Below are positions 1-32,849 of a stretch of DNA of 45,318 bases, one piece after another (the stretch's first letter is position 1; every line of letters begins with the position of its first letter). The notes below the pieces were generated by a model that searched no databases, had not been told where the DNA came from, and worked only from the letters and a program-made list of their open reading frames with translations. Position numbers and translations under genes: made by a program. Location of the stretch: assembly GCA_018711035.1 (NCBI GenBank), contig DVIU01000135.1, forward strand, positions 1 through 45,318, in the 5' to 3' direction. The DNA comes from Candidatus Scatousia excrementigallinarum. GTDB taxonomy: Bacteria > Cyanobacteriota > Vampirovibrionia > Gastranaerophilales > Gastranaerophilaceae.

Positions 1-1
1 G

Positions 2-796
2 TTTGATATTGAAGCATCCCATCACGAAAACTCAGCCGGACAGCATGAAGTCGACTTCAAATATACAGATATTCTTACTGCGGCAGATAATGTTGTAACA
101 TTCAAAATTGCAGTAAAAGCTATAGCTGCAAAACATAACCTTCATGCAACATTTATGCCTAAACCGATTTATGGAGTTAACGGTTCGGGTATGCATTGCA
201 ATATTTCATTATTCAAGGATGGTAAAAATGCTTTCTATGATGAAAATACAGACTCCCAGCTTTCAGATATTGCAAAATATTCTATCGGAGGAATGTTGAA
301 ACACGTAAAAAGTATTACTGCAATATTAAATCCGACGGTAAACAGCTACAAGCGTCTTGTTCCGGGATATGAGGCTCCCGTATACCTTGCATGGTCTTTA
401 GCTAACAGAAGTGCGCTTTTAAGGGTGCCTGCAAAACGCGGAAACGCAACAAGAGTAGAACTCCGCTCTCCGGATCCTTCGTGTAATCCTTATCTCGCTT
501 TTGCAGCTATACTCGAAGCTTGTTTGGACGGCGTTAGAAATAAAATTGATCCTCCGGCTCCTGTTGAAAGTAATATTTATAAATTAACAACAAAAGAACG
601 TAAGAAACAACGAATTGATGCACTCCCCGGCAGTCTTGCAGAAGCTCTGGAACAACTTGATAAATCTCTTGTCGGGCCTGCTGCTCTCGGAGAACATGTA
701 TTTCATGAGTTTATGTCCGCTAAGAGAAAAGAATGGGATTCTTTTAGAACTTATGTTTCACAGTGGGAAATCGACAGATATCTCGAAAGATTCTAA
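2..796 (+). CDS. glnA: Glutamine synthetase type I, C-terminal 264 aa (5' end lies upstream of the window)
   Basis: Frame 2 is open from nt 2 (FDIEASHHENSAGQHEVDFKYTD...) and continuous with tracked ORF 155..796. GS catalytic-domain signatures NGSGMHCN, NSYKRLVPGYEAP, RSPDPSCNPYL. Stop TAA at 794-796 is followed by a hairpin. Confidence 0.93.
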   Translation, partial: FDIEASHHENSAGQHEVDFKYTDILTAADNVVTFKIAVKAIAAKHNLHATFMPKPIYGVNGSGMHCNISLFKDGKNAFYDENTDSQLSDIAKYSIGGMLKHVKSITAILNPTVNSYKRLVPGYEAPVYLAWSLANRSALLRVPAKRGNATRVELRSPDPSCNPYLAFAAILEACLDGVRNKIDPPAPVESNIYKLTTKERKKQRIDALPGSLAEALEQLDKSLVGPAALGEHVFHEFMSAKRKEWDSFRTYVSQWEIDRYLERF

Positions 797-808
797 ATTA
801 GAAAGCAT

Positions 809-836
809 AAAAGCCTCTCATAATGAGAGGCTTTTT
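809..836. terminator. Hairpin (12-bp stem, 3-nt loop) with flanking A/T runs between convergent glnA and the DUF512 gene
   Basis: aaaagcctctca / taa / tgagaggctttt followed by T. The stop codon of the minus-strand gene (818-820) lies inside the stem. Confidence 0.7.
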
Positions 837-2101
837 AAATATTCAGTAAGCTCCTTCATTGAGTAAATATTTTGAATCACAAAAAACTCCTTGCCGGTCT
901 TTTCTCTGACATAAGAAAGAGTCTTCCCGTCAAGAAAATCCTCGCTATATGGTCTCATCATTACTGAAGGAATTACAACAAAATCGCCGGATTTGCCTTT
1001 CAAAGCTTCTATCAAATCATCTGTAGTAATCAAGCCTGCAACTGTAATATCTCGTCCCCAATAGTTAGACCTAACAGGAACAACTTCTGTTTCAAGATTT
1101 TTAATTTTATCAAGTTTCAGACAAATCTCATCGAGTGCTTTTTGGGCCGCGAAAGATGTGGCAAAGATGATTTTTAAAGGCGATTTAAGGGATTCAGGAA
1201 GTTTCAATTTCTTAAAATCCTCCAGAAGCATTCTTATTGACCCAACACCATCTTCAAGCTGTGAAAAATTCCCGTAGTATTTTGCAGGCGGAATTTCTCT
1301 GTCCGCCAGCAGAAAAAACTCATCAGAACAACAAACCTTTTTATATTTAGAAGCAATCTCAAGTGTTTCTATTGCACAGGCTTTATCAACCTGTTTAAGT
1401 TCCTCCACACGAAATTGCGTCACGCCGACAGGCACGATAGCAACTGAAAGTACAGTATTTTTAAGTTCTGCCAAATCAGAAAGGGTTCTTTCAAGTTCCG
1501 CCCCGTCATTGTAGCCCGGACAAAGAACTATCTGTGCGTGAAAAGGTATTTTATTTTTCCTGAACCATTTTAAATTTTCCAATGCATTGCCGGCGTTCGG
1601 ATTTCTGAGCATTTTAACCCTCAGCTCAGGATTTGTTGTGTGCACTGAAACGTAAAACGGGCCCAGATGCATTCTTTTTATTCTATCTTTATCCTTTTCT
1701 GTCAGATTTGTAAGGGTAATATAAGTGCCCTGAAGATAGGAAAGTCTGTAATCATCGTCTTTCACATAGAGGGTTTCTCTCAAACCTTTCGGCTGCTGGT
1801 CGACAAAGCAAAAAATACATTTATTCAGACAGGGCTTTACTCTGTCAAAAACTGCACTCTCAAATACAATGCCCAAGTCCTCATCATAATCTTTTTCAAG
1901 CTCAACAACTTCAATTTCGCCGTTTTTTTTCTTAATTTCAATAGTAAGCAAATCAGTTTTACAAAGATAATTATAATCAATCATATCGGACATTGCTGTC
2001 TCATCAATAGAAACAATCTCATCACCTGCTTCTATTTCAAGTTCTTCAGCTATAGAGCCTTCCAAAACTTTATTTACGATAGCGCTCATTATCTTTTTCA
2101 A
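818..2101 (-). CDS. PDZ + radical SAM + DUF512 family protein
   Basis: 427-aa ORF with an N-terminal PDZ-like segment (GSIAEELEIEAGDEIVSID) and radical-SAM cluster motif CLNKCIFCF (CxxxCxxC). Start may be Met1 (2101) or Met5 (2089). The 5' end overlaps the upstream PadR-like gene. Confidence 0.8.
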   Translation of the reverse strand: MKKIMSAIVNKVLEGSIAEELEIEAGDEIVSIDETAMSDMIDYNYLCKTDLLTIEIKKKNGEIEVVELEKDYDEDLGIVFESAVFDRVKPCLNKCIFCFVDQQPKGLRETLYVKDDDYRLSYLQGTYITLTNLTEKDKDRIKRMHLGPFYVSVHTTNPELRVKMLRNPNAGNALENLKWFRKNKIPFHAQIVLCPGYNDGAELERTLSDLAELKNTVLSVAIVPVGVTQFRVEELKQVDKACAIETLEIASKYKKVCCSDEFFLLADREIPPAKYYGNFSQLEDGVGSIRMLLEDFKKLKLPESLKSPLKIIFATSFAAQKALDEICLKLDKIKNLETEVVPVRSNYWGRDITVAGLITTDDLIEALKGKSGDFVVIPSVMMRPYSEDFLDGKTLSYVREKTGKEFFVIQNIYSMKELTEYLKSLSL

Positions 2102-2597
2102 ACCCTTCTATAATAGTAATCAAATTAGAATACTCACAAATAGTATTATCTAACAATATTTTTTGATAAAAATTCTTATCTGTATATTCATCTTCCAAAA
2201 TCTTTTGTGCACACACTTTAAAATTCATCGCAAGTGATTTCAGCTCAAAGAAAAGCTGTTTACGTTCTTCGTAATCCAAAAATTCGGCACAAGCAAGCTT
2301 AATTTTTGCATTGGTATTGAATTGCAACGGGTTATCACTGAGTTTTTCAAGAGTTCTTCTTTTTAATTCCTGCAATCCTTTTTTGGTTGTTGAATAGTAA
2401 ACAGACAATTTACCGCCATCAGACATCATTTTTCTTGTAGCAATAAAGTCATTAAATTCAAGTCTTCGCAAAGCAGGCTTCAATGCCCCGAAGCTGGGTC
2501 TGGTATAAACTCCAAATTCACTCTCAATACCTTTTTGAATAGCGTACATTGTGAATTCCCGTTTTGACACCATATATAAAATCAACAAGTCAATCAT
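2070..2597 (-). CDS. PadR-like winged-helix transcriptional regulator (long form with C-terminal helical domain)
   Basis: 175-aa ORF. N-terminus follows the PadR pattern (YMVSKREFTMYAIQKGIESEF...PSFGALKPALRRLEFNDFI...YYSTTKKGLQELKR). Call is by motif recognition only. Confidence 0.55.
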   Translation of the reverse strand: MIDLLILYMVSKREFTMYAIQKGIESEFGVYTRPSFGALKPALRRLEFNDFIATRKMMSDGGKLSVYYSTTKKGLQELKRRTLEKLSDNPLQFNTNAKIKLACAEFLDYEERKQLFFELKSLAMNFKVCAQKILEDEYTDKNFYQKILLDNTICEYSNLITIIEGFEKDNERYRK

Positions 2598-2617
2598 ATA
2601 TTTAAAATAGCATAAAT

Positions 2618-2986
2618 TTATTTAATATTCAAAAACCTTAAAAAGCTTCTAATAGCACCGGCCTTATTATGACTGTGGGGAATATTTGATTCCGGATAAT
2701 ATTTTTGGTAATTTCTTATAATATTATCCGGAAGATTTTCGCCACGCTCAAGTGATTGCGAAATCATTTCCATATATTCATCCTGTTCTTCTCTGTACAT
2801 AAAGTCTCTACGGCGCAAATCCTCATCAGCTTCATAATGTACAAGTGCATGATAAGCAGCCTCGATACTTTTATCGCCTGTATCAAACGGAAAATTCTTT
2901 ACAGCCTCGGCAACAGTCAACGCGCCTATCAATACCTTTCTGATTAAAAGTGCAACATACTCTCTGTTATTAAATTGCTGTTCCAT
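2618..2986 (-). CDS. Hypothetical acidic helical protein, 122 aa
   Basis: ORF starts 1 nt after the stop of the BlaI-like gene (2988), implying translational coupling. No family recognised. Confidence 0.6.
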   Translation of the reverse strand: MEQQFNNREYVALLIRKVLIGALTVAEAVKNFPFDTGDKSIEAAYHALVHYEADEDLRRRDFMYREEQDEYMEMISQSLERGENLPDNIIRNYQKYYPESNIPHSHNKAGAIRSFLRFLNIK

Positions 2987-2987
2987 G

Positions 2988-3326
2988 TTACTTTACTAAG
3001 TCAAATTCATTTTCAATAAATCTAATCATACTTACATAATCAGAATTAAAGAATTGCACTGCCAGCTCTTTTACAGAATCCATTGCCATTTCACGTTTAT
3101 TCATTGTAGCTTTATAGAAGAATTTTTTACCAACCTTATAACGCACAAGAATACTTTTAACGGTTAATCTGTCCATAACGGTTTTAATTGTTGTGTATGC
3201 TCTTTCAATACCGTTTTCGGATAAGTCATCAACAACATCCTGAATAGAAATATCTCTGTCTTCATATTCATCTGTCATTCGCCAAATTGAGTTTAAAATG
3301 TCAATTTCTAACTTACCGCACACCAT
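2988..3326 (-). CDS. BlaI/MecI/CopY-family winged-helix repressor-like protein
   Basis: 112-aa ORF matching the family pattern LEIDILNSIW...ISIQDVVDDL...AYTTIKTVMDRLTVKSILVRYKVGKKFFYKA, plus a short C-terminal dimerisation-like helix. Confidence 0.6.
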   Translation of the reverse strand: MVCGKLEIDILNSIWRMTDEYEDRDISIQDVVDDLSENGIERAYTTIKTVMDRLTVKSILVRYKVGKKFFYKATMNKREMAMDSVKELAVQFFNSDYVSMIRFIENEFDLVK

Positions 3327-3411
3327 ATAATTCCTCTACTTTCTTTTTCTAACTAATTACTAACATTGTAACATAAACTTTACGAATTGCAAGCTGCTAA
3401 TATTTAAATTT

Positions 3412-4587
3412 TTACAATTCCATTTCCAAAACATCAGGAACTTTTTTAAAATTACTTTTTCTGGTTCGAAGCTTATTATTTTTCTTTTTTGTTTTTACTG
3501 AAACTTTTCTATATGCATTATCAATGGATATTTTGGATAAAGGTTTTTTCGTTCTTCTGTCGTAAAATGTAAGCCAGAATTTACGGTTAATATTATCAAC
3601 AGCAAACGAAATATGCCCTGCTACTTTATCACCCGGTTTAATCTGTCTGAACATCAATTTTGTATCTCCGAAAATTGAAGGCCGGAATACTGCGTTGTAA
3701 TCGTTTACAAGTGCCAGATCAAGTCCGGAAAAAGTTTTATCTGACATATTTGTAATCATAATTGTTAAAGTTATGGTGTTAGCCTCGCCAAACGGGTCTT
3801 CTTCATGCTTGATATCACTTATCATAATATCAAGACCCGGATAAAAAAGTTCATGCTGCATAAGGGCTGTTTCTCTATATACAGGAAGACTTACTGAAGT
3901 ATTAACTTTAACTTTAATTTCATCTCCCGGTGCAATTAATACATCGTTGCCTTTGCGCATAAGTGCAGCACCAAGCCCGATTGCACCGCCAAGAGCAGCT
4001 CCGCCGGCAAGCGTATATCCCTGCGATGCGATAGCAGCCTCCAGACCTAACCAGTTTAATGCAAGAAAACCTCCTACAGCACCGCCGGCAACTGTATACC
4101 CTAAATCCTGAACAACAATTTTAGAAGTTTGAACAATCGGGTGAAGTTTTGTAGACATTCTGCCCTCTATAGGTATTTCCCTTCCGTCAGGCGTAATAAG
4201 ATAATCGAAGTCGAGAGAAATCTGAGCAGGACGCCCCAATCGCTTTGCTTCCTCAGTTTGAGCTATTCTGCCGTGAGCTATAGTACCTTTAGGGATAATA
4301 ACCCCTGAATCGCCTTCTACATCATTAACAACCTCTGCAAAAAATTCATCGCCTTCCATATTTATATTTGAATCTAAAACCTGAGATACCGTCATATGTA
4401 TAACATCAGAACGCTCAAGAGTCTCAACCTGACCTGTGAATAATTCATCCTGAAGTTTCTGGAGCCGGTCAGTTTTTTCTGCATGACCCTCAAATACCGG
4501 ATCTGCCATTACAGGGGCGTTCATTAATAAAAAAGCGGTTAATATAAATAAAGCTATTCCCTTTCTCATAACAGTATTATACATCAT
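3412..4587 (-). CDS. Secreted/membrane-associated hypothetical protein with a central glycine-zipper segment
   Basis: 391-aa ORF with a signal-peptide-like N-terminus (MRKGIALFILTAFLLMNAPVMA/DP; Met7 at 4569 is an alternative start). A beta-rich segment (GVIIPKGTIAHGRI...ITPDGREIPIEG) is reminiscent of TrbI/VirB10-type folds. Gly-zipper GGAVGG...GGAALGGAIGLGAA. The C-terminal Ig-like segment ends in a Lys-rich tail. Confidence 0.65.
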   Translation of the reverse strand: MMYNTVMRKGIALFILTAFLLMNAPVMADPVFEGHAEKTDRLQKLQDELFTGQVETLERSDVIHMTVSQVLDSNINMEGDEFFAEVVNDVEGDSGVIIPKGTIAHGRIAQTEEAKRLGRPAQISLDFDYLITPDGREIPIEGRMSTKLHPIVQTSKIVVQDLGYTVAGGAVGGFLALNWLGLEAAIASQGYTLAGGAALGGAIGLGAALMRKGNDVLIAPGDEIKVKVNTSVSLPVYRETALMQHELFYPGLDIMISDIKHEEDPFGEANTITLTIMITNMSDKTFSGLDLALVNDYNAVFRPSIFGDTKLMFRQIKPGDKVAGHISFAVDNINRKFWLTFYDRRTKKPLSKISIDNAYRKVSVKTKKKNNKLRTRKSNFKKVPDVLEMEL

Positions 4588-4621
4588 ATAAAAAACATTG
4601 CTACATTTTTACAAATTTATA

Positions 4622-4630
4622 TGATATAAT
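4622..4630 (+). promoter_or_regulatory. Extended -10 element (TGATATAAT) upstream of the 98-aa gene
   Basis: tgatataat at 4622-4630, about 43 nt upstream of ATG 4673. No good -35 at 17-nt spacing. Confidence 0.4.
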
Positions 4631-4672
4631 AATACTCGAGCAAAATTTCTGAAAGAAAAAGGAGAAATTTCA

Positions 4673-4969
4673 ATGGAACAAAAGCGCTGGTATGATATAG
4701 ATCCTGTTGTCAGCCGAGCAATTGCAATGCTTGAAAAATCAGATGAAAATCTGCAAACGATCTGTGCTGAATATGTCATTGATAAGTTAAAGGATATAGA
4801 CTTTAATATGTCTCTTGATGAACAATATAACTATATTCTCCGCAGATGGTACGATAAAAACATAAAAGTTTCACATGCAATGGAATATTTAAAACATGCA
4901 CCTGATGAATTACGCCACGAACTTGCACTGGATATTATTGAATACATAGAAAAAAATACAGAAAAATAA
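4673..4969 (+). CDS. Hypothetical 98-aa protein with an internal RWYD...VS.A...L repeat
   Basis: ATG preceded by AAGGAG with an 8-nt spacer. Two similar ~19-aa segments: KRWYDIDPVVSRAIAMLEK and RRWYDKNIKVSHAMEYLKH. Confidence 0.7.
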   Translation: MEQKRWYDIDPVVSRAIAMLEKSDENLQTICAEYVIDKLKDIDFNMSLDEQYNYILRRWYDKNIKVSHAMEYLKHAPDELRHELALDIIEYIEKNTEK

Positions 4970-4973
4970 ATGC

Positions 4974-5108
4974 TTACCAGTAACAGCCGCCTTCGACCTT
5001 CTCTGCACCTTTCGGGCGTTCGTTTTCATCAGGGCGAATCCAGTAATCATTATATAAAGACTCCTCAAGCACACTATCCCAGCGCGAACAACAAAAATAT
5101 AAAAAGTT
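4974..5108 (-). pseudogene. Ghost 3' fragment (44 codons + TAA) homologous to the C-terminus of the adjacent 315-aa gene
   Basis: Minus-strand translation directly after the TAA at 5109-5111, in the same frame: NFLYFCCSRWDSVLEESLYNDYWIRPDENERPKGAEKVEGGCYW*. It aligns with the intact C-terminus SRWDSWLGKNYYNEYWTRPSKEETPEGVELFEHGTMAYW*. There is no start codon or SD of its own. Confidence 0.6.
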
Positions 5109-6056
5109 TTACCAGTAAGCCATTGTCCCGTGTTCAAAAAGCTCGACTCCTTCCGGAGTTTCTTCTTTCGATGGCCTTGTCCAGTATTCATTGTAATAGT
5201 TTTTACCTAACCAGCTATCCCATCTGGAACCCTTTATTCCAAAAAGGAGCTGAGTTGCCCCCCCCATATGAATGGCTTTTTTACCAAGGCTTTTGACATA
5301 TTGAGCAAGAAACATTCCATACGCACCGGCACCTATTATCGCTATATCAAAATTAATTTTCTTTATATCGGCTTTCATTGCAGCAAGTGCCTCAAACCAG
5401 GTTTTGTATTCTAAATATTTCTTTGCATGTCCTATTCCCTGAACAGGTATACATGTTATTAATTCAAATTCAGGCAAAACATCCGGATTTTTAAATAGTT
5501 TATCACGTTTTTCGTACTGCTTTTTGATAGTTTCATCAAACGGATTAATCACTAGAACCTTTTTACCTTCTAAAGCCTTTGACCACGGATTTTTATAACA
5601 AAACGGGTATGAAAAAGCATTAATATCCACAATATCAGCGTGCTGCAAATACAGGCCGACAACTTTACGTTCGTATCTCTCAGGGCGGCTCGCTAACACA
5701 TCAACATCCTTTAAAATTTCAAATTGTTCACAAGCAAACCTTGTCATATTATAATCATCTATCGGAAAAAATCCTGCCGTATTTGAAAACAAATCTTTGT
5801 GCCATTTATTATATTTAGGATTACAGCCCTTCGCGTTCAACATCATACGCATTGTATCAAGCTCAAGAGTACCAAATCTGCAAATCATTTCAGGTTTATC
5901 CGATAATATATGATTGGCTACTATCTCATTAGCATCTTCTTGAGTATAAACAAATTTATTACCGGCAGTCAAGCTATTTACAACTTTATGCGGATCAATC
6001 AATTCGCGCTTGCCTCTATAAACATCTAAAAGATACTGAACACACTCAAATCTCAT
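5109..6056 (-). CDS. Putative glycosyltransferase (GT-D / DUF1792-like) containing a G8 tract
   Basis: 315-aa ORF. RFGTLELD resembles the RFGDGE motif. Gly-rich IAIIGAGAYGMFLAQYVKSLGKKAIHMGGA resembles the GT-D nucleotide-sugar pocket. Function is low-certainty; the CDS call itself is solid. Confidence 0.6.
   Translation of the reverse strand: MRFECVQYLLDVYRGKRELIDPHKVVNSLTAGNKFVYTQEDANEIVANHILSDKPEMICRFGTLELDTMRMMLNAKGCNPKYNKWHKDLFSNTAGFFPIDDYNMTRFACEQFEILKDVDVLASRPERYERKVVGLYLQHADIVDINAFSYPFCYKNPWSKALEGKKVLVINPFDETIKKQYEKRDKLFKNPDVLPEFELITCIPVQGIGHAKKYLEYKTWFEALAAMKADIKKINFDIAIIGAGAYGMFLAQYVKSLGKKAIHMGGATQLLFGIKGSRWDSWLGKNYYNEYWTRPSKEETPEGVELFEHGTMAYW
5258..5265 (-). repeat. Homopolymeric G8 (C8 on + strand) inside the 315-aa ORF
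   Basis: Reads cat atg ggg ggg gca on the coding strand (H-M-G-G-A, about residues 263-267). One of only two G/C runs of 8 or more found in the window. Confidence 0.95.
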
Positions 6057-6186
6057 AAATAATAATTCCTTTTTTAAATATCATATAATAGAAAAATATA
6101 AAAATACACTATATTGATTAAAAATATAGCCAAATGTCTATATAATGTGTTAGATTTCTTAATATTTAGCCCGCAATAAAATTTTA

Positions 6187-6546
6187 TTGTTTAATAAACA
6201 TATGACAGATGAAATTAATCGTAAAGTAACGAATATATTTTCAAGACATAATAAAGACTTGCCGCCTGCAAGCAATGAAAAGGTTAAATTCTATGCAGGA
6301 TTCAATTATGTCCGTATTGATAAAGATACAAACGGCAACAAATTTAATGCAGAACATCTTTTAAAATATGCTCAGGGCTGTCATTATATTGTAAGAGTTA
6401 TGAGGGAATATAAAGGAGATACCGTTCTCTATAACTATGATGTTCCTAATAACGATTTGTTTAAATTTATAAAATCTTTTGAAGAAAATACTCTAGACGG
6501 GAAAATTATAGAAATTGAAAAATATTTTCCGGATGAATTAGCATAG
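6187..6546 (+). CDS. Hypothetical protein, 114-119 aa
   Basis: ORF with a TTG at 6187 or ATG at 6202 as start. No clear SD and no family recognised. It ends 12 nt before the radical-SAM gene. Confidence 0.5.
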   Translation: MFNKHMTDEINRKVTNIFSRHNKDLPPASNEKVKFYAGFNYVRIDKDTNGNKFNAEHLLKYAQGCHYIVRVMREYKGDTVLYNYDVPNNDLFKFIKSFEENTLDGKIIEIEKYFPDELA

Positions 6547-6558
6547 CAGGAAGTTAAA

Positions 6559-9096
6559 ATGGATTGTTTTTTTAGAGATTACCACGAAGCCTTATTTAAA
6601 TGTAATAAGCCTTATCAGTATGTAGGCGGGGAATTCTTGTCTTTTAATAAAGATTTTGACAGTGCTAAGGTTCGGTTTGCCTTTGCATTCCCTGATAAAT
6701 ACGAAATCGGAATAAGCAACCTCGGAGTGCGCGTTCTGTATGGACTTGTAAACAACCAAAAAGATTACATGGCAGACAGGGTGTACGCCCCTGAACCTGA
6801 TTTTCAACCAAAAGAACTATACGGGCTTGAAAGTAAAAGAAAAATTAAAGATTTTGATGCAGTAGGTTTTTCACTTCAATACGAAATGGCATACCCGACA
6901 GTATTAAAAATGCTTGATATGTCTGCAATACCATACAGAAATGATGAACGCACGGATAACGATCCGATAATAATAGCAGGCGGGCCATGTGCGTTTAATC
7001 CTCTGCCGCTTGCGGATTTTATCGATGTTTTTATGATAGGGGACGGAGAAGACAGTATAATTGAAGTTTGCGAAATCCTTGACAAGACCAAAGGCCTGCC
7101 ACGTACTGAAAGGATTAAAGCTCTTTGCGAAGGCGGCAACTCCGGACGCTGGTCAAAATTTACGGACGGCACTGTAACAAAACGGATTGCGCAATTAACT
7201 TACGAAACAGCGTTAAAATCATATCCGATACCTTTTTCATCTTCGGTTCAGGATAGAGCAGTTGTGGAAATTCGCCGCGGCTGCGGAAGAATGTGCAGAT
7301 TCTGCCAGCCGGGACACGTAACCCTTCCTATCAGAGAGCGTTCTGCGGAGGATATTATTAAAATTGCAAAAGAACTTGTTAAAAATACCGGTTATGATGA
7401 ATATTCGCTTCTGTCGCTTTCTTCCAATGATTACGCGAACATAAATGAAGTTATAAAAGAACTTGCAGTTGATTTTAATAAGAAAAAAATATCGGTTTCT
7501 TTGCCAAGCCAGCGCATAGATGGCTTTAACCTTGAACTTGCAAATCTTGTACAAAGCGTAAGAAAATCAACAATGACACTTGCGCCTGAAGCAGGAAGCC
7601 AGCGTCTTAGAGATGTGATTAAGAAAAATATAACGGAAGATATGATTTTAAATGCCGTTACAACATTATACGAAAACGGCTGGTCAAGGATTAAATTCTA
7701 CTTCATCTGCGGACTTCCTACAGAAACATTGGAAGATATGGATGAAATGGCAGAACTTTTCAGAAAGATCAGACATCGCTGCCGTTTAATAAAAAAAGAA
7801 AAAGGGTTAACACACGGCATGGATTTGACCTGTACGCTTTCAATATTTGTACCGAAACCGTTTACACCGTTCCAGTGGTGCGGGCAAATGAACTTGGATA
7901 AAGTTACGGAACACATAAAATATTTAAAAGAACAAATTAAAACAATAAAAGGCGTAAAAATCAATTACCATGAAAAATACGTTTCACAAATTGAAGCAGC
8001 CCTAACACGCGGAGATGACAGCCTTTGCAAATACATAGAGGCACTATATAAAAAAGGCTGCTACCTTGATGCATGGGGAGAATATTTTGACAAAGATATC
8101 TGGTATGAAACCGCCGGCGAACTTGGAATTAACCTCGCAGAACTGGCTCAAAAAGAATACGATTTAGAAAAGCCGCTGCCGTGGGACTTTATAGACATCG
8201 GTGTCAACAAAGAATGGTTTAAAAATGAATACAAAGAAGCATTTAACGTCACGCCAGACTCTAAACATATAGTTCCTACCTGCCAGAAAAAATGTGTAAA
8301 TTGCGGTGTTTGCAAAAACCTGAAAATACATAAGGTTATGGATAAATCGTTCAAAGCCAGCCCTCAGGCTCAGGCTGCTTTAAAAATAGAAAAAGAAGAC
8401 CCTAAAACATGCAAACATTATGACAAACCTATATTCAAATACAGAATTAAACTTACAAAAACCGGAATTTTGAAATATTTTTCACATCTCGACTGGCAAA
8501 ATACTTTTTTTAAAGCAATTGCAAGAACAGATTTGAATGTTGTGTTCTCCCAGGGCTTCAACCCTACAATGAAAATTTCAATGGGAATAGCCCTCCCTCT
8601 TTTTGCAGAAAGTATAACCGAACTGGTTGATATAGAACTGTTCGATGATATTACGCCTAATGAACTTAAACTAAAGTTGGAAAAAGTTCTTCCGCCGCAG
8701 TCGCAAATACTAAGTATTGTTAAAATTGATAAATCAGCTCCGGCTATTGATATAACTGCACAATGGGCAGAATATGAAATTAATTCCTCTGATAAAAATC
8801 TTTACGATTTTGACAAATTAAAGTATAATACAGACAGAGTTTTATCTTCCGAAGAAATTTTTATCGAGAAGAAAAACAAAAAAGGTTTAATCAAAAAAAC
8901 AGACATCAAACCTGCAATTATGTCACACAGATATGAAGGTAACAGTCTGTTTATAGTACTAAAAACAGGTCAGGGAACCGGTGAAAATACCATTCCGGCA
9001 TTGAGAGCAGATGCATTAATGAATGTAATCGCGCCGGATGTAACGTTTAATATTAAACGTACACGTTTTTTTGACAGAGATTTAAGAGAATTATAA
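6559..9096 (+). CDS. B12-binding-like/radical SAM protein fused to a DUF2344-type C-terminal module
   Basis: 845-aa ORF with radical-SAM motif RRGCGRMCRFCQPG (CxxxCxxC). The C-terminal ~230 aa (KYRIKLTKTGILKYFSHLDWQNTFFKAIARTDLNVVFSQGFNP) match the radical-SAM-linked DUF2344 layout. As I recall, these are TIGR03960 fused to TIGR03936. Confidence 0.8.
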   Translation: MDCFFRDYHEALFKCNKPYQYVGGEFLSFNKDFDSAKVRFAFAFPDKYEIGISNLGVRVLYGLVNNQKDYMADRVYAPEPDFQPKELYGLESKRKIKDFDAVGFSLQYEMAYPTVLKMLDMSAIPYRNDERTDNDPIIIAGGPCAFNPLPLADFIDVFMIGDGEDSIIEVCEILDKTKGLPRTERIKALCEGGNSGRWSKFTDGTVTKRIAQLTYETALKSYPIPFSSSVQDRAVVEIRRGCGRMCRFCQPGHVTLPIRERSAEDIIKIAKELVKNTGYDEYSLLSLSSNDYANINEVIKELAVDFNKKKISVSLPSQRIDGFNLELANLVQSVRKSTMTLAPEAGSQRLRDVIKKNITEDMILNAVTTLYENGWSRIKFYFICGLPTETLEDMDEMAELFRKIRHRCRLIKKEKGLTHGMDLTCTLSIFVPKPFTPFQWCGQMNLDKVTEHIKYLKEQIKTIKGVKINYHEKYVSQIEAALTRGDDSLCKYIEALYKKGCYLDAWGEYFDKDIWYETAGELGINLAELAQKEYDLEKPLPWDFIDIGVNKEWFKNEYKEAFNVTPDSKHIVPTCQKKCVNCGVCKNLKIHKVMDKSFKASPQAQAALKIEKEDPKTCKHYDKPIFKYRIKLTKTGILKYFSHLDWQNTFFKAIARTDLNVVFSQGFNPTMKISMGIALPLFAESITELVDIELFDDITPNELKLKLEKVLPPQSQILSIVKIDKSAPAIDITAQWAEYEINSSDKNLYDFDKLKYNTDRVLSSEEIFIEKKNKKGLIKKTDIKPAIMSHRYEGNSLFIVLKTGQGTGENTIPALRADALMNVIAPDVTFNIKRTRFFDRDLREL

Positions 9097-9106
9097 GGAT
9101 TTGAAA

Positions 9107-10948
9107 ATGGCAAACAACAACAGAAATTTTAAAGAACAGCAACAGGGTAAAAAAATTGTTATTGCAGAAAGAGACAATATCGCAGCAGTTTTGGAAAACG
9201 GAAAAGTAACTGACTTTTTTATTCACAGAGGTGATGTTTTATTAGGTGACGTTTACCTTGCCACGGTAGATAATATTCTACCTAGTATAGACGCGGCATT
9301 TGTTAACGTCGGCACTGATAAAATGGGCTTTTTGCACGCTCAGGACGTTATGGGTAAAGGAACCTTAAAAGAAAAACTTAAACCAAAACAAAAATTGATT
9401 GTTCAGGTTGTAAAAGAACCTACAGGCCACAAAGGGCCTAGGGTTACAACGGAAATAAGCCTTCCGGGCAGGTTTCTTGTTCTTATGCCTTACGAACCGG
9501 GCGTAAGCGTAAGTAAAAAAATCGAAAATTCCAGAGAACGCGCAAGACTAAAAGCTATTATGAATTTAATTAAACCGGTAGGCGTCGGTGTAATCATAAG
9601 AACAGAAGCTGAAGGACAATCGGAAGCAGATATTCAGGAAGATTTGGAAATACTTCTCGAAAAATGGAACAATATTATCACTTCCGCAGAAACGCTCAAC
9701 CCTCCTAATTTGATTTACAGAGATCAGGACTTGCTATATAGAGTTATACGTGAAGCCTGCACAGAAGATGTTAAAGAAATCGTTGTTGATACGGCTTTTG
9801 CATTAAGCAGAGTTCAAAACATTCTTCAGAACTGGCATATGAATAAAAATATCGAAGTAACCCTTTATAAAGGCACAGAACCGCTATTAATCGCGTATGA
9901 TATTCATAAAGAAATTAAAGCAGCATTAAATGTTAAGGTGAATATGCCGTCGGGCGGCTATCTGTTTATACAGCAGACAGAAGCACTGACCGTCATTGAC
10001 GTTAACAGCGGTAAATTCACAAGTTCATCCACTCAAGATGAAACGATTTTGAAAACAAATATCGAAGCTGTGCATGAAATTGCACGCCAGCTCCGCCTTA
10101 GAAATATAGGCGGAATGATTATCGTTGACTTTATTGATATGATGTCCCGTGCAGATAAACTTGCAATGCTTGAAGAACTTGAAATTGCACTTGAACCGGA
10201 TAAGGCCAAACCACAGGTCGGCCAGCTTTCGGATTTAGGTCTGGTAGAACTTACCCGCCACCGTCAGGGACAGTCTTTATCTGAAATATTTACTAAAAAA
10301 TGTCCTCACTGTCAGGGCAGCGGCTGTTCGGTAATTGACTTCAATTTTGCAACTCCGACAGCAGAAGGTGAATATAGAGCGAAAGCAGCAAAATTAAAAT
10401 TACCGGTAAATAACTTCAAGAAAAACAATAATAATAAACAAAACAATAAACCTCAGGTTGAAGAAACTCCTGCCGAAATTCAGGAACAAATTCCGACTCC
10501 TGAAATTCAGGTTGAAAACCCTTCAGTCATTGCCGTTCAAGAGGTTGAAAATACAGATAAAAAACGTAAAGGCAGAAAAACACGTTTTGACAAAAAGAAA
10601 ACGGAACAGGTTGAAACACCTCTTGCTGTAACAGATGAAGTTCATACCGCAGAAACCGTTTTAAAAGTTAACGAAGAAATAAAACCGGAAATTGCAGAAG
10701 AAGTACTTGAAGCAAAATCTACAAAGACCGAAAAACCTCTGGAAGTACAGGCAGAAGCAGAACCTGTTGCAGAGCAGCCGGCTGCGACAGAGGAATCTGC
10801 GGAAACCCAATCGGCAGAACAGCCTTCTGAGGAAGAAGTAAAAGAGGAAAAACCTAAACGTACAAGAAGACCTAACAGAGGAACTTCTAAGCGTACAAGA
10901 ACAAAGAAAACTAAAAGCGAGGAAAAAGTTGAAACTGAAGAATCTTAG
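9107..10948 (+). CDS. rne: Ribonuclease E/G family endoribonuclease with a long low-complexity C-terminal tail
   Basis: S1 domain (LLGDVYLATVDNILPSIDAAFVNVGTDKMGFLH), catalytic core (ALTVIDVNSGKF, GGMIIVDFIDM) and Zn-link CPHCQGSG. About 190 aa of E/K/P/T-rich tail ends in an R/K-rich stretch. ATG 9107 (AAGGA 7 nt upstream) is preferred over TTG 9101. Confidence 0.9.
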   Translation: MANNNRNFKEQQQGKKIVIAERDNIAAVLENGKVTDFFIHRGDVLLGDVYLATVDNILPSIDAAFVNVGTDKMGFLHAQDVMGKGTLKEKLKPKQKLIVQVVKEPTGHKGPRVTTEISLPGRFLVLMPYEPGVSVSKKIENSRERARLKAIMNLIKPVGVGVIIRTEAEGQSEADIQEDLEILLEKWNNIITSAETLNPPNLIYRDQDLLYRVIREACTEDVKEIVVDTAFALSRVQNILQNWHMNKNIEVTLYKGTEPLLIAYDIHKEIKAALNVKVNMPSGGYLFIQQTEALTVIDVNSGKFTSSSTQDETILKTNIEAVHEIARQLRLRNIGGMIIVDFIDMMSRADKLAMLEELEIALEPDKAKPQVGQLSDLGLVELTRHRQGQSLSEIFTKKCPHCQGSGCSVIDFNFATPTAEGEYRAKAAKLKLPVNNFKKNNNNKQNNKPQVEETPAEIQEQIPTPEIQVENPSVIAVQEVENTDKKRKGRKTRFDKKKTEQVETPLAVTDEVHTAETVLKVNEEIKPEIAEEVLEAKSTKTEKPLEVQAEAEPVAEQPAATEESAETQSAEQPSEEEVKEEKPKRTRRPNRGTSKRTRTKKTKSEEKVETEES

Positions 10949-11276
10949 TTTAATTATTTTACTCGGTTTAATAATACTACTATCAACCCAGGCAGGTATA
11001 TGTGCAGAAGAAATAGCGCAGCATGTACCTGCTGCGGCTGAAGCGATACCGTTAAAACAAGCGGCAGGAATAACACTTACCGCAACAAAATTTATTGTTA
11101 CCATGCTGGGAGTTGTATTATCCTCCGTAATAATCTGGGCAGGTCTTTCTATTTATAACAAATTTTTTGTAAAAAGCAGTCTTAAAAACGGCGCATTACC
11201 TGAAGATACACTTAACACTCCTAAAACAATTCAAGAAGCTGTTACTTTCTTTGTAAAGAAAAACAAATTAAAATGA
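10929..11276 (+). CDS. Small secreted/membrane protein (signal peptide + one TM), 115 aa
   Basis: TTG start with GAGGA 5 nt upstream, overlapping the last 20 nt of rne. Signal peptide MKLKNLSLIILLGLIILLSTQA/GI. Second hydrophobic span FIVTMLGVVLSSVIIWAGLSIY. Confidence 0.55.
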   Translation: MKLKNLSLIILLGLIILLSTQAGICAEEIAQHVPAAAEAIPLKQAAGITLTATKFIVTMLGVVLSSVIIWAGLSIYNKFFVKSSLKNGALPEDTLNTPKTIQEAVTFFVKKNKLK

Positions 11277-11512
11277 GGATTTATATGAAAAAACTTTCTG
11301 CTAGCGGTGCAATAGGCTTATTATTAACAATGCTCATCATCGCACTGCTATTTATTTTGATGATGCCGTCTATTAAAAACACCGGCACAACAAATCTGGA
11401 AACTTCGCCTATTAAGCATGAAAGCGTTGAAGATGAAGTTAATCAAAAACTTAACGAAATCCAAAATATGCGAAATCAGTCAATTAACCAAATTCAAAAT
11501 GTTGAATACTAA
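11273..11512 (+). CDS. Small single-TM membrane protein (75-79 aa)
   Basis: ATGA overlap with the preceding stop. ATG 11285 has GAGGA 5 nt upstream and is the likelier start (MKKLSASGAIGLLLTMLIIALLFILMMP...). The C-terminal half is polar and Q/N-rich. Confidence 0.55.
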   Translation: MRIYMKKLSASGAIGLLLTMLIIALLFILMMPSIKNTGTTNLETSPIKHESVEDEVNQKLNEIQNMRNQSINQIQNVEY

Positions 11513-12453
11513 ACCTTTATTGGTGTATCAAGATTTTTAAACGCATTGTCTTCCTCAATAATTTTTATCATACTCTTTAAAATAGTATTGTAAGGAGTAG
11601 GTATACCGTGCTTTTTACCGAAATCAATTACAGTTCCTGCAAACATATCAACTTCTGTTCGTCTACCGGCCTCTACATCTTGGAGCATAGACGTTTTTCC
11701 CCATGGAATCATTGTGTGCAGATGTTCAAGAGTTTCTTCAATCATTGTATCAGTATTATGTATTCCCTCGGCTTTTGCAATGTCGCGGACTTCTTCCATT
11801 ATTTTTACGGAAAAATCCATAAAATTCTTATTTCTCAACATTTCCCCGAATGTCATCTTTAAAATTGCAGTCGGCTGGTTTGCACAAACGTTAAGCATAA
11901 ATTTAAGCCACATTGAACGTTTAATATCTTCCGGAATAGTATAATTTATGCCGATTTTGTCAAAATATTTTTTTACACGGATGACATTTTCGCTTAAATT
12001 ATTTTCAGCACCGAATACGATATTATTTACATCGTCATGTGTAATAGAATTGCCGCTTCTGACAGAGCTATGACCTATAAAATATGAGTACAACAGTTTA
12101 TCCTTTCCATACACAGCCGCAATAATATCCTCACTTGTTACACCGTTTAAAAGAGATAAAATAACCGTATCTTGTTGTACGAAGTTTTTTATATTCTTTA
12201 TAGCTTCGTCAAGCCCCGTAAACTTTGTTGCAATAATTATTAAATCAGCTTTAAAATTATTATCTTCCGGCAAAAGATAATTAAAATTTAATTGTACATC
12301 ATTAAACGTAACAGGATTTTTTAAATACTTATCTTTTCTTGCCTCATCTACAAGAACTCTGAAATTTTCAGCATCATAACGCTGAATCTTATCTGCATAA
12401 ATAGTTCCAATGGCACCAAGTCCGCATACTAATACTTTTTTAATTTCTTTCAT
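11509..12453 (-). CDS. panE: 2-dehydropantoate 2-reductase (ketopantoate reductase, ApbA/PanE family)
   Basis: Rossmann motif VLVCGLGAIGTIYA lies right after Met37 of the tracked ORF, so start ATG 12453 is preferred. The C-terminal PanE-type domain carries TSMLQDVEAGRRTEVD. Confidence 0.8.
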   Translation of the reverse strand: MKEIKKVLVCGLGAIGTIYADKIQRYDAENFRVLVDEARKDKYLKNPVTFNDVQLNFNYLLPEDNNFKADLIIIATKFTGLDEAIKNIKNFVQQDTVILSLLNGVTSEDIIAAVYGKDKLLYSYFIGHSSVRSGNSITHDDVNNIVFGAENNLSENVIRVKKYFDKIGINYTIPEDIKRSMWLKFMLNVCANQPTAILKMTFGEMLRNKNFMDFSVKIMEEVRDIAKAEGIHNTDTMIEETLEHLHTMIPWGKTSMLQDVEAGRRTEVDMFAGTVIDFGKKHGIPTPYNTILKSMIKIIEEDNAFKNLDTPIKV

Positions 12454-23135: not shown

Positions 23136-25100
23136 ATGATGGAAAAGAATCAAATGAATATTAATTTATCAAAGGCAATTCTCGGGTTGTGTGCCTGTTT
23201 TGCCCTTGCTATTCCTGCATCTGTTACCCCGGTATTTGCAGCACCTGACATTCCGATTTTAAATCAGATTCAAATGGAAAGCGGCGCAAATTATAAACAC
23301 AATACAGATTCTTTGGAATTTAAACGAGACCAGCAATATCTTAACGAAGATTACAATAGATATGAACGTAGAAAAAACGCAGTAGAAAATCCCAGCAAAG
23401 AAAATCAGGTTATAAAAAACTATGATCCGAAAGGGTCTCTTATGCAGGCTCAGGTCGAGGATATTGATACAAAAGGTGTTTATGTAAATTCTGTAGAAGT
23501 TTCGCCTTCCGAAATTTTGACTAAAGAAGAAATTGATAATATAATCAGACCGATTATTGGTAAAAATGTATTTATTGGGGATATTACAAGTGTTGTAAAT
23601 CAAATTAACCAATTATATGCTTCTAAAGGATTTGTTACAGCAAAAGCATTTTTGCCCGAACAAACTGTTACTAACGGCAATATATATATTGAACTTGTAG
23701 AAAGCCGCGTAGGTAATATTACAGTTCATCAGAATAAATATACAAGAGACAAATATATTACCGACAGATTACCTCAGAAAAAAGGGGATTTGTTTGATAT
23801 TGTAGAACTTGAAAAAGATATTCTTGACTTCAACAGATATAATGAAGGCGTAAATCTTTCTGCAAACCTTAAAGCAGGTGAAGCTGACGGAACAACGGAT
23901 ATTGAAATTACGGCACACGAAAGCTTCCCGTTCCACGTCGTCGGTATCATGGATAATGCCGGCCGCTATACCACAGGTAATTTAAGAGGCGGGGCTATGA
24001 TTTACGCTGACAGCCTTTTCCATAACAGAGATAAGTTATCCATAGGTTCTTATTTCAGCGGAGGCTCTGTCAGCCCGTTTGTTGATTACAATATTCCGGT
24101 TAACAGAAAAGATGGCCGTGTAGGGTTCTTGTTCTCATCTGGTCTTTCAAAAATCAGATACGGTGAGTTCTCAGACCTTGACTTGAGAAGTAAAGCTTAT
24201 ATGTATTCACTTTACTATAGCCAGCCGATTATCAGAAAACCGGGCTTTGAATTAAAAACTTACACTGCTTTAAATTATAAGCGTGCAAGAACAACAATGG
24301 GATTCTTGAACTACTTTGGAATAGATGATGAACTCGGTCTGGATCAGGTAACAAGCGTTGATGCAGCATTAAATTTACGTAAAGATACTAAATACGGTAT
24401 TTGGTATTTAAATCAGGGCGTAAGTTACGCGGCACCAATTTTTGATAATGATTCTAACTATGTTAAAATTTCCGGCGGAGCTGTAAGATTACATGACTTC
24501 TCCCACGGATTTATCGGCCAAATGAGAGCAAATTATCAAGTTATACCAAATAACAAACATATCCCTTACATTGATCAATTTCAGGCAGGTGGTCTGGCAA
24601 CAGTAAGAGGATACTCCGAAGGTCTTATGATTGGTAAGAACGGTTTCTACATAAGCAATGAACTTATGTTCCCTCTCTTACCTCGTGAAATCACAAGCCC
24701 TCGTTCTAAAGAAAAAATGTCATTTATAGGTAAATATATTAAAGGTGCGGTATTCGCTGACTTCGGGGGAGTTTTCCCTTCGACAGGTGAAGATTATTAC
24801 GATAACAACTACTTTATGGCATCACTTGGTATGGGCTTAAGAGTTCAATTGCCTGGCGACTTAACAGGTCGTTTATACTGGGGTTATCCTTTGATTAACC
24901 ACTCCTGGGAAAGTGACCACAAAATCGGACGTTTCCACTTTGAATTAACAATGGAACCTAACTTCGATGCCTTGTTAAGAAACAGAGCAACTGCAAAAGC
25001 GGTTAAAGCTCAACCGTTGCCTCCGGCAGAACCTGTTAATAACTACGACGACATCCGTCACTATGACTACTTCAATGATGGCGGCGGCGGCTCGCTGTAA
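23136..25100 (+). CDS. ShlB/FhaC/HecB-type outer-membrane transporter (TpsB; POTRA + beta-barrel)
   Basis: Signal peptide ending VFA/AP. POTRA pattern VNSVEVSPSEILTKEEIDNIIRPIIGKNVFIGDITSVVNQINQLYASKGFVTAKAFLPEQTVTNGNIYIELVESRVGNI. Barrel start MDNAGRYTTGNLRGG. C-terminal aromatic-rich barrel strands, then a ~50-aa non-barrel tail. Confidence 0.8.
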   Translation: MMEKNQMNINLSKAILGLCACFALAIPASVTPVFAAPDIPILNQIQMESGANYKHNTDSLEFKRDQQYLNEDYNRYERRKNAVENPSKENQVIKNYDPKGSLMQAQVEDIDTKGVYVNSVEVSPSEILTKEEIDNIIRPIIGKNVFIGDITSVVNQINQLYASKGFVTAKAFLPEQTVTNGNIYIELVESRVGNITVHQNKYTRDKYITDRLPQKKGDLFDIVELEKDILDFNRYNEGVNLSANLKAGEADGTTDIEITAHESFPFHVVGIMDNAGRYTTGNLRGGAMIYADSLFHNRDKLSIGSYFSGGSVSPFVDYNIPVNRKDGRVGFLFSSGLSKIRYGEFSDLDLRSKAYMYSLYYSQPIIRKPGFELKTYTALNYKRARTTMGFLNYFGIDDELGLDQVTSVDAALNLRKDTKYGIWYLNQGVSYAAPIFDNDSNYVKISGGAVRLHDFSHGFIGQMRANYQVIPNNKHIPYIDQFQAGGLATVRGYSEGLMIGKNGFYISNELMFPLLPREITSPRSKEKMSFIGKYIKGAVFADFGGVFPSTGEDYYDNNYFMASLGMGLRVQLPGDLTGRLYWGYPLINHSWESDHKIGRFHFELTMEPNFDALLRNRATAKAVKAQPLPPAEPVNNYDDIRHYDYFNDGGGGSL

Positions 25101-32300: not shown

Positions 32301-32577
32301 TGAAGTTTTTGAAAGAAATAAAGGCATAGAAGCCAGAAACAAAAATCCGATGAAGCGTTTTGTAGGAAAATTCGGAACTGCAACTGAAAAAATTGTAATT
32401 CAGGCAGAAGAAGCTGCCCAATCCGCTTCAACATCAAAAGTCGGAAAAATTGTAGCATTCAGTATTCTAGGTGCAGCAGCCATAGCTTCAGGCGGATACT
32501 ACTTCTTCCAGAAACGCCAGAAAAAGCTCGGTTTTAACAAACCTGTTGAAGAAAAATCATTTACAAAAATCGGATAA
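29395..32577 (+). CDS. Giant GT5 (glycogen/starch-synthase-like) glycosyltransferase homologue with large insertions and a C-terminal membrane anchor
   Basis: 1060-aa ORF. GT5/GT-B motifs in order: YGGLGVV, LWLHDRPAF, SFHNPGRDYQGW, ITNGSTPANL, GWGRPDPQKNYP, SSRFEPCGITPLESFASATPCISINTGGAPDF. A K/E-rich insertion of ~250 aa lies between the first two motifs. C-terminal TM IVAFSILGAAAIASGGYYFF is followed by a basic tail. Confidence 0.7.
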   Translation: MRITSVIPQVYAGNLKRQQTTQLTHQNPNLINEKPINSLNFVAPAYIEHLAQRGGVGFVNLTFTGADKNINQFASYSPENKRYGLNSYNYGGLGVVAQEAPNNWRIKEKADVRDFSPYHSYGTTKGGVMVAEVTRDEKGKITERHLPQNKFHQAAQNESLEEVAKRLNLKPENLEYVIQIEPDTKGKSEFVVLKDAKASGSFKRASDNAVDELKEINYRFFGTDEISDPVFIAQKKLEAKTRDEIIEPRLAKIKEQIEATYHYEQKLKELNEADNQSFNKDPYSFEPNPKITEIEEEYNKKIAEGIKSIEKEVDDEFYKTLETPEYKDKLAKITETAAEAVPERNYVYFVHTEDLARFENAYGIGAKGTGAYGAYGTYGTYGTYGTYGTEGSEDGIKHVSTNVFYADNNRAFVEGLPKLNTAEHGNFNPANLWLHDRPAFMIMHHIANKSAAGDEYYNGGVKAHSSFHNPGRDYQGWMNNPFEFFRLVANEQDVEEIKNHPQLKEIKYIEKNWHKFGPKDGEELTPEAKFVKEIFDPYFKNFMDDFNTYNISMTPVAGVKTNGKNFTAGTVSMNYGKEMKNPDTPDIALGMTKKLSEIETHDITNGSTPANLQLDNPKANFHRKGHPNLLTKLKRGFTTYNYEYELDKDGKIVKDNIDEVLKAKESNTKWLLNLIDHAYQAGGQSGVTKVFCSDAQISNGATVIGHLSGFKKGDNLFMGWGRPDPQKNYPASIGAIKEFIEFLKDKNIPDELKTRTKGIFGAGVWDASAEEYKWIKDLIEVQLPKIDNGKYAGNIMYVNNFFPNRLVGCATWTLFSSRFEPCGITPLESFASATPCISINTGGAPDFINKMRGLLTKHPYLLKRERLEEILGKKLDFNGDAAHDAKVLDGARWENATFELKDCIIMAMQSNDEEFKKAIHDQLSEELKNQEVIPYKQMAQNAGLQRDKMDWHQNADYNNGKTANERYMNEVFERNKGIEARNKNPMKRFVGKFGTATEKIVIQAEEAAQSASTSKVGKIVAFSILGAAAIASGGYYFFQKRQKKLGFNKPVEEKSFTKIG
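29552..29560 (+). repeat. Homopolymeric G9 inside the 1060-aa ORF (codons 53-56)
   Basis: Reads caa agg ggg ggg gta (Q-R-G-G-V). It is the longest G/C homopolymer in the window. Confidence 0.95.
30502..30561 (+). repeat. 9-nt tandem repeat, ~6.7 copies, encoding (G-A/T-Y)n
   Basis: ggagcttac ggtgcatac ggaacctat ggaacctac ggtacctat ggaacttac ggaact encodes GAYGAYGTYGTYGTYGTYGT. Confidence 0.9.
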
Positions 32578-32597: not shown

Positions 32598-32626
32598 TTG
32601 ACAATTAATTTTGTTCTTGTTAAATT
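32598..32626 (+). promoter_or_regulatory. Strong sigma70-type promoter upstream of tRNA-Lys (TTGACA-N17-TAAATT)
   Basis: Consensus -35 TTGACA at 32598-32603. The surrounding ~30 nt are nearly identical to the promoter upstream of tRNA-Glu (40437-40465). Confidence 0.6.
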
Positions 32627-32742
32627 ATTCTTACTGGGACTAGCCAAAAGGATAGCACCGGGGTGGGGCACAAAGCTCTGATTTTTAAATCTTAACAACC
32701 CCCAATATTAAAAAATTAAATAGCATTGCAAATAAAAAATTT

Positions 32743-32815: not shown

Positions 32816-32849
32816 AATTTTTATGTTATTATTTATTTAGTGAGGAAAA

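Follow-up and report, generated by a model that had tools for sequence, protein, structure and literature searches.

Does a run of eight G residues inside a putative glycosyltransferase gene of a gut bacterium act as an on/off switch driven by replication slippage, or is it a harmless consequence of how two glycine codons happen to be spelled? The question is raised by a 45,318-nucleotide (nt) contig of Candidatus Scatousia excrementigallinarum (DVIU01000135.1 of assembly GCA_018711035.1), the whole of which was analyzed and is referred to below as the window. An initial annotation of its sequence had claimed that a run of eight Gs on the coding strand (hereafter G8, with other lengths named likewise) makes one of its genes phase-variable. 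The features on which the question turns are listed here, with strands relative to the contig.

Positions 5109 to 6056, minus strand: gene 1, from the listing of open reading frames (ORFs), encoding a GT-D-like protein of 315 amino acids (aa), a putative glycosyltransferase; the window carries it in the in-frame (on) state
Positions 5258 to 5265, minus (coding) strand: the G8 tract, atG GGG GGG Gca, codons M264-G265-G266-A267, read directly from the sequence
Positions 5112 to 5257, minus strand: conserved C-terminal segment of gene 1, residues 267-315, lost upon a one-base slip in either direction

It is somewhat probable that the G8 of gene 1 is a weak, ON-biased slippage switch situated at a hot spot that is common to its gene family. 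The evidence that carries this reading comes largely from a tandem paralog, gene 2, which at the homologous position carries a longer poly-G tract that differs in length between otherwise identical strains and whose codon spelling appears to be maintained by selection. The tract of gene 1 itself is almost invariant, which weighs against the claim of phase variation made in the initial annotation.

On the plus strand, the tract region reads ...gagttg CCCCCCCC atatgaatgg..., with the C8 occupying exactly positions 5258-5265. The coding strand reads CAT ATG GGG GGG GCA (H263-M264-G265-G266-A267), 49-50 codons from the stop, at the site and in the motif (H-M-G-G-A, about 50 codons before the stop) named in the initial annotation, and eight is the maximum number of consecutive Gs that H-M-G-G-A can encode. 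As an unbroken G run within an ORF, the tract exceeds the minimum of 7 bases expected of a homopolymer contingency locus. In silico, a G7 tract yields a protein of 273 aa ending in ...HMGGQLSSFLE and a G9 tract yields one of 280 aa ending in ...HMGGGNSAPFWNKGFQMG, reproducing both predicted products, such that a change of a single unit toggles between 315 aa (G8) and 273 aa (G7) or 280 aa (G9). The tract codons form part of the most conserved stretch of the family, IGAGAYG...GK.A.H.GG..Q.LFGI.G.RW, in which H263 never varies and the conservation of G265 and G266 reaches at least 90%. In a structural model of the gene 1 protein they lie at the end of a strand (residues 260-263) and the start of a helix (residues 265-271). 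Moreover, 9 of the 36 invariant residues of the family (Q269, F272, G276, R278, N289, W292, P301, Y314, and W315) are encoded 3' of the tract, bearing out the further claim that a slip would remove a conserved C-terminal module. Judging from this conservation, a protein truncated at residue 266 and deprived of its last 49-50 residues would very probably lose its enzymatic activity.

Members of this family usually occur in tandem, gene 1 with the motif HMGGA and gene 2 with HGGGA, and the pair has a radical-SAM gene on one side and a BlaI/PadR regulator cluster on the other. The H-G-G-G-A of gene 2 is at the position homologous to the H-M-G-G-A of gene 1. In a sibling species, gene 2 of locus L006 reads CAC GGG GGG GGG GCG, that is, an in-frame G10, and encodes a protein of 309 aa (P0246, found on 5 contigs), whereas two further loci, L045 (a 39-kb contig covered 36.7x) and L046 (which comes from a separate, independent study), carry a G8 and encode a protein of 278 aa (P0247). 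Across 2052 aligned columns, L006 and L045/L046 differ by a 2-nt gap alone. In a third species, an off form with a G9 (P0120 on L044, 267 aa) is found alongside a full-length protein of 307 aa (P0252), the contigs being 1420 and 1421 nt in length. A G9 that places gene 2 out of frame is likewise present in L018, a strain of the window's own species, while in other strains the run is interrupted by GGA; in L047, a G9 is in frame within a motif that reads HGGGS. Gene 2 carries a G10 in both L048 and L049. It should be noted that most of the length variants predicted for gene 2 are absent from a collection of 15 billion proteins.

Gene 1 of these last two loci (positions 1292-1312) also has the motif HGGGA, spelled as an uninterrupted G10 in L048 and as the interrupted GGG GGA GGA in L049. 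Since L048 has a G10 in both gene 1 and gene 2, the two paralogs can carry tracts at the same time. Gene conversion from gene 2 was considered as a source of the gene 1 tract and is unsupported, the flanks of the two tracts differing on both sides.

The spelling of the gene 2 tract was compared with that of other glycines in the same proteins, drawing on gene 2 of five species-level lineages (six sequences) and setting the three tract Gly codons against 14 other conserved Gly columns. GGG was used in 16 of 18 tract codons as compared to 5 of 84 codons at the other conserved glycines (Fisher p about 1e-12; p about 1e-11 when restricted to the four other species). The Fisher test ignores phylogeny, a concern that is limited by the low synonymous identity of the genes, with four-fold sites only 0.38-0.59 identical between species. 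Because GGG has been retained while synonymous sites were nearly randomized, it is the homopolymer itself that seems to have been kept. Thus, gene 2 looks like a probable real poly-G contingency locus, with a maintained tract, lengths that correspond to on and off forms, and occasional locking by interruption. Further, off forms were found on 2 of 7 and 1 of 2 contigs with tracts for which G10 is the in-frame length, and on about 1 of 70 contigs at the G8 of gene 1; the higher frequency of off forms at longer tracts fits the length dependence of slippage known from Campylobacter jejuni.

In the window, all that is left of gene 2 is a remnant immediately downstream of gene 1, together with the scar of the deletion that produced it.

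Positions 4974 to 5087, minus strand: ghost SRWDSVLEESLYNDYWIRPDENERPKGAEKVEGGCYW with its stop, what remains of the 3' end of gene 2, the deleted tandem paralog, by comparison with L003
Positions 5087 to 5092, minus strand: 842-bp deletion junction bearing GTT microhomology, within the spacer that directly follows the stop of gene 1 (L001 compared to L003)

The initial annotation had described this remnant as a ghost copy of the C-terminal module of gene 1. An in-frame copy of that kind (SRWD...GGCYW and a stop) does exist, 7 codons past the gene 1 stop, and it consists of the last 37 codons of gene 2 and its stop. In L003, an intact gene 2 of 309 aa (P0042, 49% identical to gene 1) is located at positions 3996-4925 directly downstream of gene 1, and 842 bp of it are missing from the window, L001, L002, and L004. 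The shared frame, the short distance, and the duplicated SRWD...YW module might suggest that the ghost is a functional cassette, swapped in for the native C-terminus by way of a frameshift or of recombination, yet we regard this as scarcely credible. First, the ghost corresponds exactly to the 3' end of gene 2 in L003, left behind by the deletion across the GTT microhomology. Second, with every tract length between G4 and G13, translation in silico ends upstream of the ghost; no gene 1 tract length reads into it, and it is therefore unconnected with any switch. Third, strains that lack gene 2 (L012-L014) also lack the ghost. The idea of a spare C-terminal cassette was rejected on these grounds: the copy that the initial annotation noticed is real, but it is the stump of a deletion.

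The fate of gene 2 in the window's species bears on a second alternative, namely that poly-G insertions and deletions in this family are one-way steps toward the loss of a dispensable and redundant gene pair, with no cycling between on and off. Depending on the strain, gene 2 is present, pseudogenized, partly deleted, or absent, and every stage can be found, from the intact gene of L003 through frameshifts (combined with a nonsense mutation in L015 and L019, at the G9 in L018) to the 842-bp deletion and, in a relative with 84% identity (L012-L014), to complete absence. Such a series is what progressive decay would produce. One-way decay does not readily account for the conservation of the GGG GGG GGG spelling across five lineages despite near-saturated synonymous sites, nor for the predominance of on forms, nor for an off allele in the sibling species that is two bases shorter than its on counterpart (G8 as compared to G10) within 2 kb of otherwise identical sequence and that has no further lesions. 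Decay without cycling is accordingly judged improbable as a general account of the tract.

The case for a switch in gene 1 itself is less direct, and a number of observations weigh against it. Each of the 11 distinct contigs that were read at the DNA level has a G8 (L001-L004, L015-L020, and L042), which fall into two allele groups with a 10.7% nucleotide difference, and about 70 contigs encode the full-length protein of the gene 1 clusters. Sampling that was independent of the tract, conducted through the neighboring 114-aa gene and avoiding selection on the GT-D-like protein itself, recovered the GT-D-like gene on 19 of 20 contigs, and in 19 of 19 cases it encoded the 315-aa form. Ten variants of gene 1 predicted for G5 to G11 in three strain backgrounds were all absent from the collection of 15 billion proteins, as were the predicted G7 and G9 products in a fourth background (P0125). 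The only variant of gene 1 recovered is a G7 (protein P0122, 273 aa, ending in ...HMGGQLSSFLE) at locus L005, a 1351-nt Logan contig from run ERR4562898. This single G7 is indistinguishable from background homopolymer noise: a T6-to-T5 change in L004 (3.5x coverage) splits a 391-aa protein into products of 89 and 275 aa, and similar single-base homopolymer insertions or deletions can be deduced from how proteins P0142 and P0041 end. Consensus assemblies, it should be added, cannot reveal variation within a population. Orthologs of gene 1 in other species spell the glycine pair GGT GGT, GGC GGA, GGC GGG, or GGA GGG, and since they lack the tract elsewhere, that of gene 1 appears to be young and lineage-specific. 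Nor is the conservation of G8 within the species significant, given that alleles differ at 20% of their third codon positions. Finally, the amino acids themselves force most of the Gs in the tract, so that two synonymous choices suffice to create it, with a chance of about 1.6% for the gene 1 ORF. As a separate observation, the contig of 1248 nt in ENA that encodes protein P0124 and carries gene 1 ends 5 codons before the G8, possibly at an assembly break caused by the homopolymer, although this is anecdotal. Two further scans were made: a search of JGI metagenomes with the tract flanks and a variable gap returned 3 matches, all of them unrelated chance matches, and a scan of genome contigs returned 6 loci, none from the window's own species.

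Set against the initial annotation, these data are mixed. It had named a lack of length heterogeneity among strains as the outcome that would speak against switching, and for gene 1 such heterogeneity is nearly lacking, the G7 contig being the single exception. It had also suggested looking for tracts in homologs, and there the outcome is more favorable, with G9 to G10 tracts at the same site in gene 2 and a tract in gene 1 of L048, although other gene 1 orthologs have none. The phase variation that it proposed thus draws its support from the length-polymorphic, codon-maintained tract at the homologous site of gene 2 and from one G7, while gene 1 as sampled is almost invariant.

How surprising the tract is by its length depends on the scale at which it is viewed. 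In the 45 kb of the window, the only G or C runs of at least 6 bases are the C8 at 5258-5265 and a G9 at 29552-29560, with no runs of 6 or 7 bases. A first-order Markov model gives an expectation of 0.13 runs of at least 8 bases for the window. A codon-aware null model, in which synonymous codons in 37 ORFs were resampled 2000 times according to the window's own usage with protein sequences fixed (GGG represents 13% of Gly codons in the window), gives 0.16, with a probability of 0.0105 for two or more such runs and of 0.0155 for a run in the gene 1 ORF alone. Both expectations agree with the figure of well under one in the initial annotation. Its view that two such tracts are unlikely to arise by chance holds for this window, where the pair is unusual, but several runs of this length are expected by chance in a genome of about 2 Mb, and run length alone proves nothing.

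The simplest alternative follows from these numbers: the G8 would be a neutral by-product, two GGG codons that fall upon an obligatory M-G-G-A and form a stable tract that leaves the gene always on, with the G7 being either an error or a sporadic dead allele. The roughly 70 full-length contigs as compared to one G7 contig, the absence of the predicted variants, the lack of a tract in orthologs from other species, the chance expectation of 0.16 runs per 45 kb (and so of several per genome), and the background homopolymer insertions and deletions in the same data are all as this account would have them, as is the invariance of the G9 in the other glycosyltransferase gene described below. What it leaves as coincidence is that the very same codon site is occupied by a selected, length-polymorphic poly-G tract in gene 2 and by a tract in gene 1 of L048, that the tract of gene 1 is at the maximum that its protein sequence allows, and that the two long runs of the window, unaccompanied by shorter ones, are both in glycosyltransferase-like genes. 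Moreover, a tract as short as G8 is known to switch in C. jejuni (PMC3401435). Neutrality is considered unlikely on balance, though it deserves to be taken seriously. A still simpler objection, that the G8 is an artifact of sequencing or assembly, draws on the general proneness of homopolymers to sequencing error; it is very improbable, given that the same G8 recurs across 11 independent contigs produced by different studies and assemblers, each time within a 315-aa ORF whose length matches that of thousands of homologs.

The second long run of the window, which the initial annotation had invoked alongside the first, shows no sign of the variability seen in gene 2.

Positions 29552 to 29560, plus strand: G9 tract, codons 53-56 (Q-R-G-G-V) of a GT1-like gene encoding 1060 aa (29395-32577)

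Here, the tract lies in a non-conserved N-terminal leader (QRGGV, where homologs have RKSRV or KAEKI). It is G9 in 14 of 14 loci read, and the 1060-aa gene is full-length on 20 of 20 contigs that were sampled through a neighboring transporter gene, with a 426-aa version of the transporter ORF serving as anchor. An exact look-up further revealed that the 1060-aa protein encoded with the G9 is already on record. Downstream of this gene (window positions of about 32600-33800), loci L032-L035 differ from one another, carrying an ArsP_2 permease, a TPR protein, or a dTDP-sugar isomerase, and the region beside the G9 gene looks like a strain-variable junction.

Taken together, the observations can be assembled into a mechanism that would operate at the level of the family. 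The slippage hot spot would consist of the codons of a conserved strand-loop-helix motif, H-x-G-G-A, that the paralogs have in common. In gene 2, the motif is written CAC GGG GGG GGG GCN (G9-G10), with G10 placing the gene in frame and G9 or G8 placing it out of frame, and slipped-strand mispairing at this contingency locus would account for the length differences between otherwise identical strains. The window strain has lost gene 2 through the 842-bp deletion, and its gene 1 has a G8 of maximal length in the on phase. A one-base slip during replication would then bring a stop into frame 7-14 codons on and remove the last 49-50 residues. Switching would be expected to be rare at a tract as short as G8, in agreement with assemblies in which the gene is on almost everywhere. 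The target of the putative glycosyltransferase might be a surface glycan or a glycoprotein, which is a guess. More broadly, it is possible, to a degree that stops just short of probable, that gut Melainabacteria maintain by selection a poly-G switch in the H-G-G-G-A codons of tandem GT-D-like paralogs, each toggled independently, so that an uncultured commensal of the human and animal gut would vary a surface glycan stochastically. In such a system, gene 2 would carry G10, G9, or G8, gene 1 of some species would carry G8 or G10, and the G8 of the window would be a young and short member.

The assignment of gene 1 to a GT-D-like family draws on sequence models and on structure. PF22882 matches the protein with 26.9 bits, just under the cutoff of 27.0, and NF040628 (NCBIfam) does so with 25.3 against a cutoff of 75, but the initial annotation of the gene as GT-D-like is sustained by the modeled fold. 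An AlphaFold2 model built with 45 homologs has a mean predicted local distance difference test score (pLDDT) of 92.5 and a predicted template modeling score (pTM) of 0.90, and its top folds in the PDB are the DUF1792 entries 4phr, 4pfx, and 5v4a, with probabilities of 0.99-1.00, followed by TagA/TarA. The best Foldseek match has a probability of 1.00 and E = 2e-4, but a template modeling score (TM-score) of only 0.40-0.46 and 14% identity. A sequence-profile search of the PDB with the gene 1 protein yielded no DUF1792 match and only spurious GxGxxG matches to thioredoxin reductases. On the model, the product of gene 1 is a distant relative with a GT-D-like fold. Its homologs (n = 4901) are mostly 305-325 aa in length, and many have a precomputed PF22882 annotation. 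An invariant glutamate of the family, E65 in R-F-G-[ST]-x-E, may be the counterpart of DXE, the metal-binding motif of DUF1792. The C-terminal extension beyond residue 271 is conserved and falls outside of the Pfam model; in the structural model, helix 265-271 is followed by a helix at 277-287.

Gene 1 is flanked on both sides by small genes in conserved synteny, and no polysaccharide locus accompanies the GT-D-like gene pair.

Positions 6202 to 6546, plus strand: syntenic gene encoding 114 aa, divergent from gene 1; the tract-independent anchor for sampling
Positions 4673 to 4969, plus strand: syntenic gene encoding 98 aa, convergent with the GT-D-like gene or genes

The window as a whole is bacterial chromosome, with genes for glutamine synthetase, radical-SAM proteins, RNase E/G, LpxK, MlaD, Omp85/ShlB, an Fe-only hydrogenase, ClpB, and a T2SS-F protein; a megablast search of positions 1-12000 against a phage collection returned no match. 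The closest genome records are metagenome-assembled genomes named "Candidatus Gastranaerophilales bacterium", with 64-72% protein identity, and an ortholog of gene 1 with 84% identity belongs to Candidatus Scatousia sp. NCBI lists Scatousia as incertae sedis; by its placement in GTDB, the organism is an uncultured gut Melainabacterium. Three further observations concern other genes of the region. A 391-aa protein with a signal peptide and no Pfam match is encoded at window positions 3412-4587 (minus strand), with its ortholog at 4470-5644 of L004. A C8...G6..G6 cluster (ccccccccttgtaaaggggggcagggggg) is found, identical in both, in the radical-SAM/DUF2344 gene of the sibling species at L006 1399-1427 and L045 792-820, a gene that is orthologous to window positions 6559-9096; the cluster might be a hairpin or a further slippage site. 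Lastly, a C7 run occurs in an Omp85/ShlB-like gene at L037 7996-8002, the window ortholog of which (23136-25100) has no run of at least 6.

Homopolymer-driven phase variation of glycosyltransferases is textbook knowledge in mucosal pathogens such as Campylobacter, Helicobacter, Neisseria, and Haemophilus, and one of these organisms, C. jejuni, lacks mismatch repair. Melainabacteria, including the Gastranaerophilales, are a sister lineage of the Cyanobacteria and comprise uncultured, diderm residents of the gut. Full-text literature searches recovered no report linking Gastranaerophilales or Melainabacteria to phase variation or to homopolymeric tracts, and phase variation is not known for DUF1792 or for GT-D-like enzymes. 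While the mechanism proposed here is already known, it is plausible, from these searches, that both the group of organisms and the enzyme family are new for poly-G switching. If the family-level pattern is true, these commensals would diversify a glycan stochastically, presumably under pressure from phages or from host immunity. Tract length at one defined codon site would also provide an easily scored marker for strain-level dynamics in metagenomes. In practice, the G8 of the window should be regarded as a candidate switch, found in its on state nearly everywhere.

Among enzymes of known structure, the best match to the gene 1 model is dGT1 of Streptococcus parasanguinis (DUF1792; 4PHR, 4PFX), at the low TM-score and identity given above. 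Among phase-variable systems, the surface-glycan glycosyltransferases of Neisseria (lgtA, lgtC, lgtD) and Helicobacter pylori (futA, futB) vary through poly-G or poly-C tracts. There, several paralogous enzymes each possess a tract of their own and generate combinatorial variation, an organization that the L048 pair, with G10 in both genes, resembles. Those systems are experimentally proven and belong to known lipo-oligosaccharide or lipopolysaccharide loci of pathogens, whereas the gene pair described here is found apart from any polysaccharide locus in an uncultured commensal. The closest parallel to gene 1 is wlaN (cj1139c) of C. jejuni, a lipo-oligosaccharide galactosyltransferase gene with an intragenic G8 of the same length, in which a one-base slip results in a truncated off product, as predicted here. 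The G8 of cj1139 switches measurably, and its extension to G11 raises mutability 10-fold (PMC3401435). Unlike wlaN, gene 1 belongs to another phylum and encodes an enzyme with a GT-D-like fold, and its tract, as read in consensus assemblies, is nearly fixed at G8. The location of the tract differs as well: the site in wlaN is arbitrary, whereas that in gene 1 is late in the gene and coincides with the most conserved motif. A notable feature, from the comparison of sequences, is this embedding of a mutable tract in the enzyme's most conserved motif together with its conservation at the level of codons in the paralog. If the family-level pattern is true, it would be a clear example of selection maintaining a mutable tract within such a motif.

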